DNA of 6,407 bases from the IMG/VR virus record IMGVR_UViG_2579778982_000018; one strand, given 5' to 3'. Below are positions 479 through 6,407 of the stretch, in pieces; position 1 is the first letter of the stretch, and each line of letters begins with the position of its first letter. The notes under the pieces were generated by a model that saw only the letters and a program-made list of their open reading frames with translations, was not told the origin of the DNA and ran no database searches. Origin of the DNA: a virus (taxonomy: Duplodnaviria > Heunggongvirae > Uroviricota > Caudoviricetes). The translations under genes and the position numbers were made by a program.

Positions 479-3400
479 TCAGCTGATACTGATGCCTGCG
501 GTGGCTTTCTTCATCACCACAACCAGCAAATCGCTGATACTTGCTGTGGGATACCAGTTATTCACCAGCCATGCTGACACCGAAAACTCCAGCGTCATGT
601 GACCGTGACCGGCAGGCATATCAATAACGCCACTGTAAATCAGCGTATTATCCAGCGCGGTACGGTTATAAATTTCAGCACCGTTTTTCCGCACTATCAG
701 ACGGCATGAGGAGTAAATATCAGTATGCTCTCTCTCATGCTTAGCGCCACTGAATGCCACCGCCGGAATAACAATCTGCCGGTCAAACGGCTGATCGTCA
801 TAAACCCTGACGGTAATGGTCCCTGATGGCCACCGCTCCGGTGCACGGGAGTCCCGGGGGAAAGCTTTGCCCACTGTTTTAACGAGATCGCCTTCAATCT
901 GGTTCGCGGACAGTTTTCCCAGAACCCGACAGTTCTCGTTAATCGTGACGTTGTTGAGCGTCCCGGAGTTCGCATTCACACTACCACTGATATCCGCATT
1001 TTTAGCCGTCAGCCGCCCGTCCGATGTCAGGGAAAATGCCGGAGGATTACCGCCACTGGTAATGGTGGGAGCCGTCAGATATTTCAGGAACACTTCATTC
1101 ATGAATATCTGATCGCCCTGACCAACAAACATCGGCTTTGTGTTGCCATTCGCAGGATTAATCATCGCAATCCGGTCAGCAGCCAGAAGCACCTGACTCT
1201 GCATACCTGCTGGCGTATTCTCAATACCGGCACCGATACCCGCAATATAAAGGCGTCCGTCCTGCATCTGCTGCAGCTTCACAGCCCACATGCTGTTCAG
1301 ATTATTATTTGTATCAACCTGAACCTTCTGTATCTGCTGGATCGCCGCACTCTGGTCTTCCAGTTTCTTATTGACGGTCTGCGTGATTTCATTGCTGACA
1401 TTCGTAATGGACGTCCTGATTTCAGCCAGGTCCGGCGCAAGCTGACCGTTATCAATCTGCGTCCACAGCTCCTGGGCCAGATGTGTTTTCCCGATTTCTC
1501 CTTTGAAAAAATCCAGGTAACCTTCCGCATCATCGCTCGCCCGACCGACAGCCTCCACGAATGCCGATTTGCCAACGGTGTTCACACTGCGAACGTAAAA
1601 ATAATAATCATGGCCCGGTTTGATATTGATACTGGCGGCTATCCAGTACAGCGCCGTACCAAGATAACGCGCGCTGGTTTCAACCTGCCTGATATCAGCA
1701 ATCCGTTTTTCCGAGAACCAGAACTCAAACTGTACCGTCGGATCATAAACCGCAAAATGCGGCGTGGCGGTTATCTGAAAATAGCCCGGCGTCAGCTCAA
1801 TCCGCGACGGTGCTGCCGGTGCGGCAATCCGGAACGATACCGACGCCGGATCGCCCTGCTGTCCCCACGCATTTACCGCCCGGACTGTCAGCCTGTAGTT
1901 CCCCAGCGCCAGTTGCGTGAAGCGGTATGTGGTTTCCGTCGTCCGGGCCGTGCTGACCAGCCGCTCACTGCCGTCATCCGCTGCCACGGTCAGGCGAAGC
2001 ATGAAGCTCACGCCCTTCACCACCTTCGGCGTGTCCCAGCGCGCCAGCACCTGATATTCCCCGCTGTCTGCGGTGACTTCGGCAGTCAGGTGCTGCACTG
2101 CTGGCGGCGTGACACCATTCACCGTGCCGCTCTGGTCGCCGTCAAAGTGCGCCCCGTTATCCACGATGGCTTCTTTTTCCGGTACATGCTGCACGGCGGT
2201 GATGGCATACGTGCCGTCGTCGTTCTCACGGATACTCACGCAGCGGAACAGGCGCTGGCGCAGCGTCGGCAACTTCAGCCCCCACACGCTGTATTCAGCA
2301 ACGCCGTCAGGAACACGGCTCACTTTCACCTTCACGCCGTCGGTGACGGACTGAACCTCCACGCTGACCGGATTGCCACTTCCGTCAACCAGGCTTATCA
2401 GCGTGGTGCCGGAGGATGGCAGCGTGATTTCACGGTCGAGCGTCAGCGTCCGGGTCTGGCTGTTCACCGCCAGCACGCGCCCGCCGGTGCTGATACCGGC
2501 ATAGTCATCATCACAGATTTCAATGACATCGCCCGGCACATGGCGAAGCCCTTCTGCACCCACGCTGAAGTCCACGGTCTGCGTTTCCAGCAGTTCCGTT
2601 TTAATCAGCCACAGCCCGGCGCGGTGTGCCTGCCCCCGGCTGGTACAGCCAAAGGCATCCATCTTCGTGACGTGACGACCGTAACGGGCAATGGCCTGCG
2701 TATCCTCCACAAGCTCTGTCGCCGTCTCCCAGCCGTTGTTCGGGTCAATCCAGTTCACCTCAACGGCATTATGGCGGTCCTTCAGGGCGCTGAAGCTGTA
2801 GCGGAACGGCGCACCATCATCCGGCATCACCACATTACTGCGGTTATAGGTCCACACCTTATCTGATGGTCGGTCCTGCACGAACGTCAGCGTCTGCCCG
2901 TTCCATACCGGCATACAGCGCATCGCCGAGCAGAAATCACTGAGCACATCCCACGCCTTGCGCTGTGTGGTCAGGTACGCATTACAGGTAATGCGCGGCT
3001 CCGTGCCGCCAAAGCCATCCGGCACTGACTGGTCGCAGTACTGGCCGATGACATACAGCGCCCATTTGTCCACATCCGCCGCACCAAGACGTTTCCCCAT
3101 GCCGTAGCGTGGATGGGTCAGCATATCCCACAGACACCAGGCCATGTTGTTGCTGTATGCCGGTTTAAACGTTCCGTCCCAGATACCGCTGTATTGCCGC
3201 GTCTGCGGGTTATAATTCGACGGCACCTGCAGAATACGCCCGCGCAGATGATAATTACGGCTCACCTGCTGGCTGCCGAACTGCTCCGAATCCACCTGCA
3301 CGCCGACCAGTGCCGTGTTCGGGTAGCACTGTTTCACATCGATGATTTCGGTGTATGACGACCAGAGCGTTTTGTTCTGCAGCTGGTCTGTGGTGCTGTC

Positions 3401-3958
3401 CGGCGTCATCCTGCGCATCCGGATATTAAACGGGCGCGGCGGCAGGTTATCCACCACCACCGAGGCCAGATACTGCGAGGTGGTTTTGCCCTTAATGGTG
3501 ATGTCTTTTTCCGTCACCCAGCCACCATTACGCTGTATCTGAACCAGCAGGCGGACTTCCGACGGATTCCGGTCCCCCTTTGAGGTGGTTTCCACCAGTG
3601 CCTGCACACCGAAGGTAAAGCGCAGACGGTCGATGTTTGCCGACGTGATGGTCCGGGTGATCGGCGTGTCATATTTCACTTCCGTACCCAGCACCGTCTC
3701 GGAGCCGGAGGATTCAAATCCCTCCGGCGGTGTCTGCTCCTGCTCACCTGCCCGGAACACCACCGTGACACCGGATATATTGGTATTCCCCTCACTGTCC
3801 AGCACCGGCGTACTGTTCAGCAGCACGCTTTTTAATCCGTCCACCGGACCTTCAACCGGCCCTTCGCTGATGGCATCGATCACACTCAGCAGCTGCGTGG
3901 ACTTCAGGTTGTCCCTCGCTTCGCGCGGGGTATGCCCCTTACTGCTTCCTTTACCCAT
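479..3958 (-). CDS. J: Tail tip / host specificity protein J (central tail fibre), 1159 aa, with a variant C-terminal receptor-binding region
   Basis: 1159-aa ORF in the track; ATG at 3958..3956 with a GAGG-containing Shine-Dalgarno about 5 nt upstream. The N-terminus [34 protein letters not shown] and most of the first ~870 residues match lambda gpJ (1132 aa) as I recall it. The C-terminal ~290 residues are homologous but clearly diverged and longer. Confidence 0.95.
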
Positions 3959-3970
3959 TCCTCACACTCC

Positions 3971-4000
3971 ATAAACAACAAAGCCGCCCAAAAGGCGGCT
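3971..4000 (-). terminator. Terminator-like hairpin downstream of the inserted lipoprotein gene, immediately upstream of the J ribosome-binding site
   Basis: Inverted repeat AGCCGCC (3982..3988) / GGCGGCT (3994..4000) with a 5-nt loop; on the minus strand it is followed by the U-rich stretch TTGTTGTTTAT. Located between the lipoprotein stop (TAA, 4027..4025) and the J start (3958). Confidence 0.4.
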
Positions 4001-4024
4001 CATGAGTTACGACAGGATTAACTA

Positions 4025-4363
4025 TTATTTACATGCATTAACACTATCAGCAAAAATTTTTGGCGTTAATGCTGGTACACGTTCATAAAGAGTAAAACTA
4101 CTGCCATTTCCTGCTTTTTTGATATCAAGCACAACATCATATCCCCCCATAGCCTGTGGAACTAAAAGGCTTACCCCATTCTCAATAGGAAGGGATGTTA
4201 TAGGTGTTCCATTACCAGCCCATTGTCTGGATATGCAGCCTGACAATTCATCAATATTTTTTAATGAATTACCTTCCATTACAGGTTTTCCGGATTTTAC
4301 GTAATCCAAAGATTTACATCCTGTTAAGGCAATAATCGTGCAGAATAAAATCGTTTTGTTCAT
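4025..4363 (-). CDS. Small predicted lipoprotein (~112 aa precursor, ~93 aa mature) of unknown function; moron inserted between tail genes I and J
   Basis: ORF 4025..4375 in the track; the track's first codon is TTG, and I prefer the in-frame ATG at 4363..4361. From that ATG the product starts MNKTILFCTIIALTGC: positively charged n-region, hydrophobic h-region and a lipobox LTG|C, the signature of a signal peptidase II lipoprotein. The gene lies in a locally AT-rich segment unlike the flanking phage genes. No strong Shine-Dalgarno was found. I do not recognise the mature sequence. Confidence 0.75.
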   Translation of the reverse strand: MNKTILFCTIIALTGCKSLDYVKSGKPVMEGNSLKNIDELSGCISRQWAGNGTPITSLPIENGVSLLVPQAMGGYDVVLDIKKAGNGSSFTLYERVPALTPKIFADSVNACK

Positions 4364-4375
4364 ATAGCTAACCAA

Positions 4376-4436
4376 TAGAATAATTATCAGTGTTCGATAT
4401 AAATATTAAATCAGTTAGAACATGAGTAAAATAATA
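4376..4436 (-). promoter_or_regulatory. AT-rich spacer upstream of the lipoprotein gene; possible moron promoter
   Basis: 61-bp spacer between the I stop and the lipoprotein ATG, roughly 20-30% G+C, containing several -10-like hexamers on the minus strand (GATAAT, TAATAT, TATTAT). I could not pair any of them with a convincing -35 at 16-18 bp spacing, so this is a weak call. Confidence 0.2.
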
Positions 4437-5078
4437 TTACCGCCCAATTACCACAACCTGACCACCATCCCCTTCATCTGCCGTGCTGATCTCCTGAGAT
4501 GCCACACGTGACCCCACGCGCATTTCACCGTACAGAACAGGCAGGACATTGCCCTGGGCAACCATGTTATCCAGTGAGGAGAAATAGGTGTTCTGTTTGC
4601 CGTTATCCGTTGTCTGTGTACGGGGAGTTCTGGCTTTCGGTGCCAGCATCTGCGCCACACCACCAAGCGTCATCGCCGCACCCATTGAAAAGAGAATGTC
4701 ACTGAAAGCGATACTGATCCCCGGCATCCAGATTGCCGTAGCAATCAACGCCGCACCCAGCACCGCCTGAAACACACCGCCACTTTTTGCTCCCGCAAGA
4801 CGCGGCACGATGTGGATCACGGCACCATTTGCCAGCGGCTCATTAAGACGGGATGATAATTCGGTTTCTCCTGCATCCCGCCCGGCAATCCGTACCTGAT
4901 ACCAGCCATCGCTCAGTTTCTGACGAAACGCCGGGAGCTGTGTGGCCAGTGCCCGGATGGCTTCAGCCCCCGTTTTCACACGAAGGTCGATGCGGCGGCC
5001 AAATCGTTGCAAATCCCCGTAAAGGCAGATGCGTGCCATGCCCGGTGACGCCAGAGGGAGTGTGTGCGTCGCTGCCAT
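4437..5078 (-). CDS. I: Tail assembly protein I, 213 aa
   Basis: ATG at 5078..5076 with GAGAGG Shine-Dalgarno upstream; stop TAA at 4439..4437. N-terminus MAATHTLPLASPGMARICLYGDLQRFGRRIDLRVKTGAEAIRALATQLPAFRQKLSDGWYQVRIAGRD and C-terminus APKARTPRTQTTDNGKQNTYFSSLDNMVAQGNVLPVLYGEMRVGSRV..SQEISTADEGDGGQVVVIGR match lambda gpI as I recall it. The central hydrophobic segment differs, and the protein is 213 aa against 223 aa in lambda. Confidence 0.9.
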   Translation of the reverse strand: MAATHTLPLASPGMARICLYGDLQRFGRRIDLRVKTGAEAIRALATQLPAFRQKLSDGWYQVRIAGRDAGETELSSRLNEPLANGAVIHIVPRLAGAKSGGVFQAVLGAALIATAIWMPGISIAFSDILFSMGAAMTLGGVAQMLAPKARTPRTQTTDNGKQNTYFSSLDNMVAQGNVLPVLYGEMRVGSRVASQEISTADEGDGGQVVVIGR

Positions 5079-5719
5079 TTGTCGGTATACCTCTCTCGTT
5101 TGCTCAGTTGTTCAGGAATATGGTGCAGCAGCTCGCCATCACCACAGTAAATAGCGGCATGATTCGGCACCGATGAACCAAAGCAGCACAGCAGCACATC
5201 GCCCGGCTGCGCCGCTGACAACGGCACCTGATACAGCCCCGTTGCCTCCAGATTATCCAGATAGAGATTCTGACCGTGACGCCACCAGTCATCCTCACGA
5301 TGAAAATCCGGCATCTCAATCCCCGCCAGATGGTAAGCGTCCCGGAACAGCGTGTAACAGTCCGTCACCCCGTGCTCAAAGCGCCGCCCGGTAAGATGCG
5401 GCACACAGCGGAACTTGTGAATCGCCCCCCGGCAGACCAGCCACCACGGCAAATCACTCTGCACCTGCAGCCGCCGGTCAGCCTCACTCAGCCAGGGCAG
5501 ACCACCGGGATGACTGTGGACCAGCGCCACAATCTCACCCTGCATTTCTGCCTGCAGCCAGTCCTCCGGAGCCATCCGGAAATAATCCTCCGGCTCACCG
5601 GAAATATTCACGCAGGGAAAATATCTTTCCCCCTCCGGCGTTCTCACCACGAAGCCGCACGACTCCGCTGGCGCACATCGCCGGGCGTGCGCCAGAATCG
5701 CTGATTCTGTCTCTGTCAT
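4976..5719 (-). CDS. K: Tail tip assembly protein K with an MPN/JAMM (Mov34) domain and an NlpC/P60-like (C40 peptidase) domain; 247 aa if started at ATG 5719 (classical lambda annotation would be 199 aa from ATG 5575)
   Basis: Track ORF 4976..5794 begins with GTG inside the end of L; I prefer the in-frame ATG at 5719..5717 (MTETESAIL...), 4 nt after the L stop. It contains a complete JAMM motif HSHPGGLPWLSEAD (H-x-H-x7-S-x2-D) with acidic residues available upstream only in the longer form. It also contains NlpC/P60-like Cys and His contexts (GVTDCYTLF, NHAAIYCGDG). The alternative ATG at 5575 has a GGAGGA Shine-Dalgarno and corresponds to the 199-aa lambda K. Confidence 0.85.
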   Translation of the reverse strand: MTETESAILAHARRCAPAESCGFVVRTPEGERYFPCVNISGEPEDYFRMAPEDWLQAEMQGEIVALVHSHPGGLPWLSEADRRLQVQSDLPWWLVCRGAIHKFRCVPHLTGRRFEHGVTDCYTLFRDAYHLAGIEMPDFHREDDWWRHGQNLYLDNLEATGLYQVPLSAAQPGDVLLCCFGSSVPNHAAIYCGDGELLHHIPEQLSKRERYTDKWQRRTHSLWRHRAWHASAFTGICNDLAAASTFV

Positions 5720-5723
5720 GGGA

Positions 5724-6407
5724 TTACTGCGAAAGTTTGTTAATGGAAAGGAAGCCGCCAAAGTTGCCGACGTTATTGCGGAACTTACAGCCACTCAGGC
5801 ATTTGCTGCATTTATCCTTCGTGATATCGGACGTCGGCTGGTCATATTCATCCGCGACAGCCGGACCGCTATAACCGCACTCGTCACCGCGATAGGTCCA
5901 GGTGCAGGTGTTGGCCAGCATGATACGTCCCGGAAAAACAGCGCCATCCGTTTCCGTCGGCGTGGACAGTACAAAGGAGGCACTCACCGCGCTCAGTTCG
6001 CTGCACTGCTCGATGCGCCAGCGGCTGATCACCTCCTGCTCCGGATCGGCGTAACTGTTTCCGTTGACGAAGTTCACCGCATCCAGAAAACGGGCGTAAA
6101 CCTTACGCCGGACCACCGTTCCGCCGACCAGACTCTGCAGATCTTCCGCCATCCCGGTGACCATACCGTACAGGTTAGAAACCGTCAGCGTGGGGCGCGT
6201 ACTGGTGCCTTTGCCATTCAGTTCAAAACCGCTCCCCTGAATGGGATACGGCTGATACTGTCGCCCCTGCCAGGTGACCGGCTCACCTTTTTCGTTCTGC
6301 TCATTACAGAAAAAATAACGTTCTCCACCGACCTCTGTCAGGTCGATTTCCCAGAGCACCACGCTGGCCGACTGCTCCGCACGGGTGCATTCATTCAGTG
6401 TTTCCTG
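5724..6407 (-). CDS. L: Tail tip protein L, 5' end truncated by window edge (about 5 N-terminal codons missing)
   Basis: Frame is open from the window edge (6407) to stop TAA at 5726..5724. Product ...QETLNECTRAEQSASVVLWEIDLTEVGGERYFFCNEQNEKGEPVTWQGRQYQPYPIQGSGFELNGKG... matches lambda gpL as I recall it, including the C-terminal Cys-rich segment DKCSKCLSGCKF. Confidence 0.9.
   Translation of the reverse strand, partial: QETLNECTRAEQSASVVLWEIDLTEVGGERYFFCNEQNEKGEPVTWQGRQYQPYPIQGSGFELNGKGTSTRPTLTVSNLYGMVTGMAEDLQSLVGGTVVRRKVYARFLDAVNFVNGNSYADPEQEVISRWRIEQCSELSAVSASFVLSTPTETDGAVFPGRIMLANTCTWTYRGDECGYSGPAVADEYDQPTSDITKDKCSKCLSGCKFRNNVGNFGGFLSINKLSQ

Follow-up and report, generated by a model that had tools for sequence, protein, structure and literature searches.

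The window considered here, a 6,407-nt stretch of a lambda-type Escherichia coli prophage (IMG/VR virus record IMGVR_UViG_2579778982_000018), covers part of a distal tail module in which all genes lie on the minus strand. Between tail assembly gene I and gene J, for tip attachment and host specificity, it harbors a small AT-rich island with one gene, which encodes a lipoprotein. It is chiefly through morons that temperate phages alter the surface, virulence and phage resistance of their hosts, and the island is probably such an element, placed in what is otherwise a 60-nt I-J gap and encoding an envelope-acting lipoprotein, with lysogenic conversion as its most likely role. The original prediction, made from the letters of the sequence, had proposed a complete moron unit with promoter, gene and terminator, and had suggested a link to this variant of J. 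The insertion, the foreign composition, the single accessory gene and the known slot stand, whereas a promoter is not evidenced, the terminator is ambiguous and the link to J has to be given up. The elements on which the argument rests are listed by their positions in the window.

4001-4440, no strand: AT-rich island, the 440-nt stretch lowest in guanine-plus-cytosine (G+C) content and a gap in the alignment with lambda and phage Evi.
4025-4363, minus strand: lipoprotein gene, 112 amino acids (aa), from the list of open reading frames (ORFs), a RefSeq coding sequence on the identical region, and PHROG 914.
4316-4363, minus strand: signal peptide and lipobox, read off the translation.
4364-4436, minus strand: AT-rich spacer upstream of the lipoprotein gene, 21.9% G+C.
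3971-4001, minus strand: terminator-like hairpin and T-rich tail, from a terminator scan and RNA fold.
4001-4007, no strand: direct repeat CATGAGT, copy 1.
4421-4427, no strand: direct repeat CATGAGT, copy 2, 420 bp from copy 1.
4437-5078, minus strand: tail assembly gene I, the neighbor upstream of the island (Pfam Lambda_tail_I, E = 4e-24).
479-3958, minus strand: gene J, 1159 aa, the neighbor downstream of the island (Pfam J-domain matches).

The base composition of the island sets it apart from the whole window. The segment 4001-4440 has 33.9% G+C and the minimum among all 440-nt windows starts at position 4000, while those outside the island average 56.7% (standard deviation 4.1, minimum 47%) and the genes J, I, K, and L have 56.6%, 57.3%, 58.2%, and 55.9%, respectively. 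The manual counts of the original prediction, namely about 34% for the island against GC-richer flanking genes and 20-48% for its 60-nt blocks, agree well with these values and with the measured block range of 23% to 47%; the sliding-window analysis that it proposed places the island lowest in the entire sequence. As it had also claimed, only one plausible ORF (4025-4363, minus strand) can be found in the island, with 36% G+C overall and a G+C content at third codon positions (GC3) of 0.24 compared with 0.57-0.67 in J, I, K, and L. Regarding the AT-richer source that had been postulated, the foreign composition holds and such a source is plausible, but no AT-rich donor of the island was found.

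The segment is inserted relative to lambda and its relatives. About 420 nt of the island are missing in the alignment from lambda and from phage Evi, in which the 3' end of I and the 5' end of J align right up to the junction; the refined extra DNA, of about 420 nt, runs from the end of the hairpin (4001) to the stop codon of I (4437-4439), and the I-J spacer is 478 nt long in the window versus 60 nt in lambda. Among 117 lambda-type I-J junctions sampled from IMG/VR, baited with the conserved start of J alone, the state is binary, 111 having a spacer of 59-60 nt and six a spacer of 477 nt with the island. In complete E. coli genomes, the island is carried by 337 of 5426 (about 6%), in 349 places and always with at least 97.8% identity, while about 4,250 genomes have the I-J flanks, at about 8,400-8,650 places in all, and some 96% of these junctions are devoid of the island. 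Taken with the IMG/VR sample, it is present at about 4-6% of lambda-type I-J junctions. Both the alignment with lambdoid phages and the survey of related prophages, which had been put forward as checks, thus speak for an insertion. The flanks of carriers and non-carriers are 87-100% identical up to the junction, and no empty site with the island's own flank haplotype was found in E. coli, since all 334 records with flanks of at least 95% identity carry the island. What looked like a different downstream junction at one locus (L052) was traced to an indel of 1 nt in the positional comparison and was discarded. A 7-bp direct repeat, CATGAGT, is located at the exact two ends of the extra DNA and could be a junction microhomology; this is only suggestive, and the repeat is not relied on because 17 different 7-mers repeat within the same AT-rich 530-nt region. 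In a comparison of the island DNA with 50,697 phage records, no match was obtained even with a distant-mode search, and a tblastn search retrieved Fraca and LMessi alone, at about 30% identity. In both of these phages another small ORF precedes the family member, that of LMessi having a lipobox. Gene I itself is mosaic: in 30-nt bins, the identity of its central portion of about 250 nt (4640-4900) to that of several empty-junction prophages is only 23-63%, with most bins at about 50-60%, and its last 200 nt are 87-100% identical to empty-junction prophages.

The gene of the island is real and conserved. It extends from an ATG at 4363-4361 to a stop codon at 4027-4025, its product is identical to RefSeq WP_001332187.1, annotated "hypothetical protein," and RefSeq gives the same gene annotation on the identical DNA of E. 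coli FDAARGOS_1059 and O104:H4 2011C-3493. The N-terminus reads MNKTILFCTIIALTG|CKSLDYV..., with a signal peptide MNKTILFCTIIA-LTG|C whose lipobox, LTGC at residues 13-16, satisfies the pattern [LVI][ASTVI][GAS]C; the codon of Cys16 is at 4318-4316, and the predicted mature protein comprises 97 aa from the lipid-modified Cys16. The residue at +2 is Lys, and Asp occupies this position in none of the family members shown in the broad alignment. Because this residue is Lys and not Asp, the established +2 rule predicts sorting of the lipoprotein to the outer membrane. Close homologues all share G15, C16, K17, S18, L19, and D20; across 56 distant members Cys16 is invariant, as are Cys43 and Cys111, and P27, W48, and G63 are nearly so. 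The whole of the protein aligns with PHROG 914 (E = 7.3e-33, residues 1-112 versus profile positions 1-118 of 118), a family annotated as function unknown. The variant sites among E. coli alleles, 12 synonymous versus six nonsynonymous, indicate purifying selection on the gene. A confident AlphaFold2 model (predicted local distance difference test, pLDDT, 83.7) displays an alpha/beta architecture with a five-stranded sheet packed on helices, and its best fold match is Flpp3, a Francisella outer-membrane lipoprotein (PDB 2mu4, titled virulence determinant). A PDB sequence-profile search found nothing, Pfam gave only noise on the 56 family members, and a Salmonella prophage transcriptome paper held nothing relevant.

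Homologues of the lipoprotein can be found in several gaps of the tail operon. Close homologues, with 48-62% identity, are present in Klebsiella, Kluyvera, Enterobacter, and Jejubacter, and an exhaustive profile search yielded 125 representative clusters at 50% identity, drawn from Enterobacterales, Burkholderia, and Pseudomonas phages; the proteins measure 105-150 aa and have three cysteines that never vary. Close homologues were located at 71 loci, 60 in the I-J gap, six in the T-H gap and five in the K-I gap, and all 71 lie on the strand of the tail genes inside lambda-type tail modules. The occupation of two further gaps of the tail operon by homologues fits repeated insertion better than ancestry, and this distribution is the strongest argument for mobility. 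The gaps are also known to hold morons, since the HK97 record annotates gp22 and gp23 in I-J as "moron product" and "reverse moron product," in keeping with the moron-type setting that had been claimed, and in HK446 a small gene and a terminator are annotated in the K-I gap. Other cargo can be found there as well: mEp390 has a different lipoprotein, mEp021 (45958-46524) has a putative HNH endonuclease gene in the I-J gap, which accordingly accepts unrelated cargo in other phage lineages, and an IMG/VR contig, L089, has a multi-gene block of about 4.8 kb (1100-5900) in the K-I gap, with Arc/CopG-like, antirepressor-like, and helix-turn-helix proteins, a member of the lipoprotein family and a second lipoprotein of 149 aa. 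Some distant members are not in tail modules; one in Burkholderia adjoins a cI-like repressor gene, and others are in a replication module or an integrative island. One distant member bears the JGI label "YceK." The position next to the repressor is the classic one for genes expressed in the lysogen.

Regarding the T-H gap, Enterobacter phage LAU1 (MN688132) and the Enterobacter prophage L011 have flanks that are 96% identical and family members that are highly diverged. In LAU1 the gap contains an unannotated ORF for a lipoprotein of 121 aa (956-1321, 32% G+C, 33 bits against the hidden Markov model of the family), of which the record annotates, wrongly, just a fragment of 55 aa. The divergence between these two members looks like cassette replacement and is the pattern that an arms-race gene would show.

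Comparison across the family suggests that the low G+C content is maintained. The enterobacterial copies have 32-43% G+C within tail modules of 52-57%, with a GC3 of 0.24-0.38 across the three slots; because they are all AT-rich despite about 50% protein divergence, their low G+C would seem to be kept, e.g., for regulation, and not merely to record a recent acquisition. The copies from Burkholderia and other hosts are near the local base composition.

Reading the island as a moron with its own transcription and an envelope function has to be weighed against several results that count against it, concerning in turn its terminator, its promoter, the annotation of its product and its relation to J. 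On the minus strand, a hairpin with a 9-bp stem (4001-3981; GAGCCGCC-TTTT-GGCGGCTT) is followed by a T-rich tail, TGTTGTTTAT, which stops some 12 nt short of the ribosome-binding site and start of J, and the two together are called terminator-like by terminator scan and fold. However, a homologous hairpin, AAACCGCC-loop-GGCGGTTT, is present at an equal distance from J in lambda, in Evi, and in all empty junctions; across about 40 haplotypes of empty sites the stem never changes, and the loop can be TGCG, TCCG, TCAG, TGCT, or TGCA. The hairpin was thereby ruled out as a moron-specific feature, and because empty junctions carry the homologous structure, it is by itself no mark of a self-contained transcription unit. 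Thus, the hairpin and U-rich tract that the original prediction had described downstream of the gene exist, in an allele of their own, but are not peculiar to the island. This allele, AGCCGCC-TTTT-GGCGGCT, differs by one compensatory change from an A-U to a G-C pair and by its TTTT loop, and was never seen at empty sites. Every homologue in the other slots likewise has a G+C hairpin and a T-run after it, just before the ribosome-binding site of the next tail gene. The cassette may bring its own terminator, which replaces the resident hairpin; alternatively, the resident ones might be relics, or else intercistronic elements that are general in tail operons.

The latter possibility raises the question of whether lambda and most of its relatives have lost a segment that is ancestral to the I-J junction, the hairpin being its remnant. 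Empty junctions do retain the hairpin and T-tract with no obvious partner gene, and the similar hairpin directly after homologues in other slots could be the 3' end of a former moron. Set against this are a G+C content of 36% and a GC3 of 0.24, both far from those of the tail operon, the small share of junctions that carry the island, the uniform empty spacer of 59-60 nt across some 40 haplotypes, and the absence of the island-linked hairpin allele from empty sites; moreover, the occupancy of the K-I and T-H gaps in sister modules requires independent insertions regardless. An ancestral segment is therefore highly improbable, and the near-identical island sequences suggest that the carriers form a single derived clade.

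As for a promoter, the original prediction had pointed to -10-like hexamers in the AT-rich spacer, and such hexamers are indeed present, but not as an above-chance signal. In the 73 nt of the spacer, two hexamers with at least five of six matches are observed versus 1.6 expected from shuffles. The top candidate has a -10 GATAAT at 4388-4383 and a weak -35, either TTAATA at a spacing of 15 nt or TTTAAT at 16 nt, and its score of 9/12 is matched by 35% of shuffles. A consensus promoter scan gave no minus-strand match in the spacer, no sense-strand sigma-70-like site was found upstream of the homologues in the other gaps, and in the K-I slot of Klebsiella and Kluyvera merely 32-34 nt separate K from the lipoprotein gene. 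The leader RNA (minus strand of 4355-4440) folds with a z-score of -3.3, none of 200 shuffles being as stable, and in the predicted fold the start codon and a weak ribosome-binding region are paired to about 4405-4425; this pairing of the start codon arises solely if the RNA begins upstream of about 4420. The fold would accordingly favor translation from an internal-promoter transcript over that from read-through RNA. In the T-H slot homologues of L011 and LAU1, a local hairpin contains their GGAGG Shine-Dalgarno sequence. If these predicted structures form, the leader hairpins may exert translational control.

These results bear directly on the alternative that the gene is a passenger of the late operon, with no promoter of its own, whose product would be made by lytic read-through and would act at lysis or modify the envelope late, e.g., by keeping released virions from being inactivated by envelope debris that bears the receptor, a role proposed also for T5 Llp. 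The co-orientation of all 71 close homologues with the tail genes in three slots fits this alternative, as do the lack of an above-chance promoter in the window or upstream of homologues, the short distance from K in Klebsiella and Kluyvera, and the hairpin of the empty junctions, which late transcription must read through anyway. That co-orientation, however, reflects only about three independent insertion events; the 73-nt spacer with 22% G+C and its GATAAT could fire in vivo, given that weak or H-NS-controlled promoters escape consensus scans; the modeled leader fold, by pairing the start codon in RNA that begins upstream of about 4420, would disfavor read-through translation; and distant members lie beside a repressor gene or in non-structural regions. 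We regard the passenger alternative as somewhat unlikely, and the shielding of progeny, which is argued by analogy, as about equally so; a progeny-protecting passenger is not exclusive of the other readings.

Further points that weigh against the preferred reading come from annotation. No family was found for the lipoprotein in Pfam, NCBIfam, or PADLOC (in the latter, 0 families at E <= 1), and a literature search on protein accessions, locus tags, and PHROG 914 found no expression or phenotype data.

The last of them concerns J. The J protein of the window is 98% identical to lambda J over its N-terminal 800 aa and 41.5% identical over its last 135 aa; because of this low value, its receptor is probably not LamB. 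The gene is mosaic also in composition, its 3' third (479-1800, the C-terminal receptor-binding part) having 49-53% G+C and the rest (1800-3958) 58-67%. Among 44 island-bearing prophages with a complete J, its last 135 aa are window-like in 30, about 40% identical to the window's in six, about 59% identical in five, and unrelated in two, a further J being truncated, while the lipoprotein is 99-100% identical across at least four classes of J C-terminus. Conversely, more than 2000 genomes have the C-terminus of the window's J with at least 95% identity, and most of them lack the island, which is present in 337 genomes. The suggested linkage of the island to this J variant is thereby refuted, and the lipoprotein does not co-vary with the receptor-binding domain of J, which argues against the simplest model of a lipoprotein masking the phage's own receptor in the manner of Cor and Llp.

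Such a receptor-masking exclusion lipoprotein, directed at the receptor of its own J, would be suggested by the location of the gene directly upstream of J, by the fact that lipoproteins of this kind typically adjoin receptor-binding genes, e.g., cor downstream of J in Fraca, and by Lpp010 and Lpp021, which exclude phages sharing a receptor. Nevertheless, the same lipoprotein is found beside J C-termini that are only 40-60% identical or unrelated, the window's J C-terminus is frequent in genomes that lack the island, T-H homologues are far from J, Fraca has both a member of the lipoprotein family and cor, and neither Cor nor Lpp021 resembles the lipoprotein in sequence or fold. Masking of the own receptor is thus improbable.

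Taken as a moron with a role in lysogenic conversion, the island can be given the following mechanism. A small foreign AT-rich block is inserted in the I-J gap of a lambda-type prophage. After export and lipidation at Cys16, its prolipoprotein would be anchored to the outer membrane on the periplasmic side, where a compact, disulfide-stabilized alpha/beta domain of about 95 residues would act on the cell envelope. Co-orientation with the late operon entails transcription alongside the tail genes after induction, and transcription in the lysogen might start in the AT-rich spacer and end at the hairpin before J. The most likely role is lysogenic conversion of the envelope, for which superinfection exclusion or progeny protection is the leading guess; exclusion would take place at a step in which the receptor-binding tip of J plays no part, e.g., by preventing lambda-type tail tips or DNA from crossing the periplasm. 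Exclusion is placed first because of the position of the gene and the precedents of HK97 gp15 and the mEpimmI Lpp proteins, and, as an argument by analogy, it is held as a tentative possibility. In a wider and similarly tentative proposal, PHROG 914 would be a widespread family of prophage outer-membrane lipoproteins that block superinfecting lambda-type siphophages at a step for which the receptor-binding domain is not needed, e.g., when the tail tip or DNA crosses the periplasm, the gene plus its terminator would form a cassette moving among at least three tail gaps, and low G+C would be kept for H-NS-type or leader-dependent control.

Alternatively, the lipoprotein might serve the host, as a fitness or virulence factor conferring serum or antimicrobial-peptide resistance or envelope robustness, like lambda Bor and the plasmid proteins Iss and TraT. 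Many extraintestinal and diarrheagenic pathogens carry the island, among them UTI89, S88, IHE3034, APEC O1, NU14, UM146, O104:H4 outbreak strains, and O55:H7 CB9615. In size and predicted location the protein is Bor-like, and its best fold match is Flpp3. Yet there is no homology to Bor past the signal peptide, environmental, animal-commensal, and type strains are among the carriers as well, carrier counts are uncorrected for the pathogen bias of sequenced genomes, and the confinement of all 71 surveyed close homologues to lambda-type tail modules suggests a phage-directed role. A host-directed function is considered unlikely.

With regard to the rest of the window, the two remaining tail genes are located beyond I.

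4976 (approximately) to 5719, minus strand: tail gene K.
5724 to the end of the window, minus strand: tail gene L.

The start of I is placed by RefSeq at 5012, while the longest ORF extends to 5078. At the other end, RefSeq annotation of identical prophages shows an outer-membrane gene of the Ail/Lom family, on the minus strand, of which the window contains the part from its start at about 411 to the left edge, so that two accessory envelope genes, the lom-like gene and the lipoprotein gene, lie on either side of J. An Rfam scan of the window found no RNA family. The carrier prophage of FDAARGOS_1059 is strongly decayed, with three IS66-family insertions that break the K, side tail fiber, and terminase genes, and is adjoined by the effector pseudogenes espV and tccP2; its lipoprotein gene is nonetheless intact.

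Morons are a well-known kind of element, and the lipoprotein gene is a fresh example rather than a new kind. Its carriers, about 6% of complete E. coli genomes, range from UTI89, S88, APEC O1, IHE3034, and the O104:H4 outbreak strains to the species type strain, and among pathogenic E. coli the family is fairly common. As a conserved, predicted outer-membrane lipoprotein that has relatives in the same tail-operon gaps as HK97 gp15 and is not tied to one J variant, its product is an inexpensive and well-defined candidate for a phage-exclusion or envelope-phenotype screen; if it were only a passenger of the late operon, it would be an ordinary accessory gene. The occurrence of one gene family at three intergenic sites of one operon type also offers a clean natural case in which to study the movement of morons and the relation of their terminators to the intercistronic hairpins already in place.

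Several known systems can be compared with the island. Among small lipoproteins of temperate or T5-like siphophages, Cor (of phi80, N15, and HK022), T5 Llp, Lpp021, and Lpp010 resemble the island product in that their genes are in or beside tail and receptor-binding genes; these precedents stop infection at the outer membrane (PMC11893012). However, Cor and Lpp021 are unrelated to it (about 9 bits, over the signal peptide only, and no similar solved fold found), its mature size is 97 aa as compared with about 55-60 aa in that group, and the pairing of those proteins with their own receptor-binding protein is absent here, where the same lipoprotein stands beside at least four J classes. Superinfection is excluded by unrelated lipoproteins that temperate siphophages of E. 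coli encode in their structural gene cluster, and in mEpimmI phages Lpp010 and Lpp021 act against phages with a common receptor (PMC11893012). Lambda Bor and Iss are, like the island product, prophage accessory lipoproteins of about 100 aa whose carriers include many extraintestinal pathogenic E. coli, but an hhalign comparison with Bor covers 26 signal-peptide columns only (probability 51%) with no further homology, and bor is located beside the lysis genes while the island gene is between I and J. Lambda lom (Ail/Lom) is an accessory envelope gene of the same tail region and the same prophage type; it encodes a beta-barrel protein of the outer membrane, not a lipoprotein, and most lambda-type prophages have it, whereas the lipoprotein island is found in about 5%. 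The likeness to Flpp3 and other DUF3568-like small alpha/beta lipoproteins is at the level of a common fold only (6-13% identity) and allows no transfer of function. The Tai and Tab systems were considered and rejected, being cytoplasmic, non-lipoprotein, and at other positions.

The closest counterparts are the tail-operon morons of HK97 and HK022, reportedly described by Juhala and colleagues in 2000, among which HK97 gp15 is the founding moron. By definition (Cumby et al., 2012, PMC3594210), a moron is extra DNA between adjacent genes that differs in composition, has its own promoter and its own factor-independent terminator, and is expressed while the prophage is repressed; in the window, the extra DNA between genes that are adjacent in relatives and the composition unlike that of the surroundings are found. 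HK97 gp15, whose gene has the tail chaperone gene on one side and the tape-measure gene on the other, has been proven to exclude superinfection (PMC3594210); it is an inner-membrane protein, whereas the lipoprotein is predicted to be in the outer membrane. HK97 gp22 and gp23 and HK446 gp18 have no sequence similarity to the lipoprotein (gp15 being outside this comparison). Nevertheless, the island has in common with the HK97 and HK022 morons extra DNA between adjacent tail genes, a deviant composition, and a terminator-like hairpin after the gene, and those morons occupy the same gaps as the lipoprotein family, namely T-H for gp15, K-I for HK022 gp20, and I-J for gp22 and gp23.

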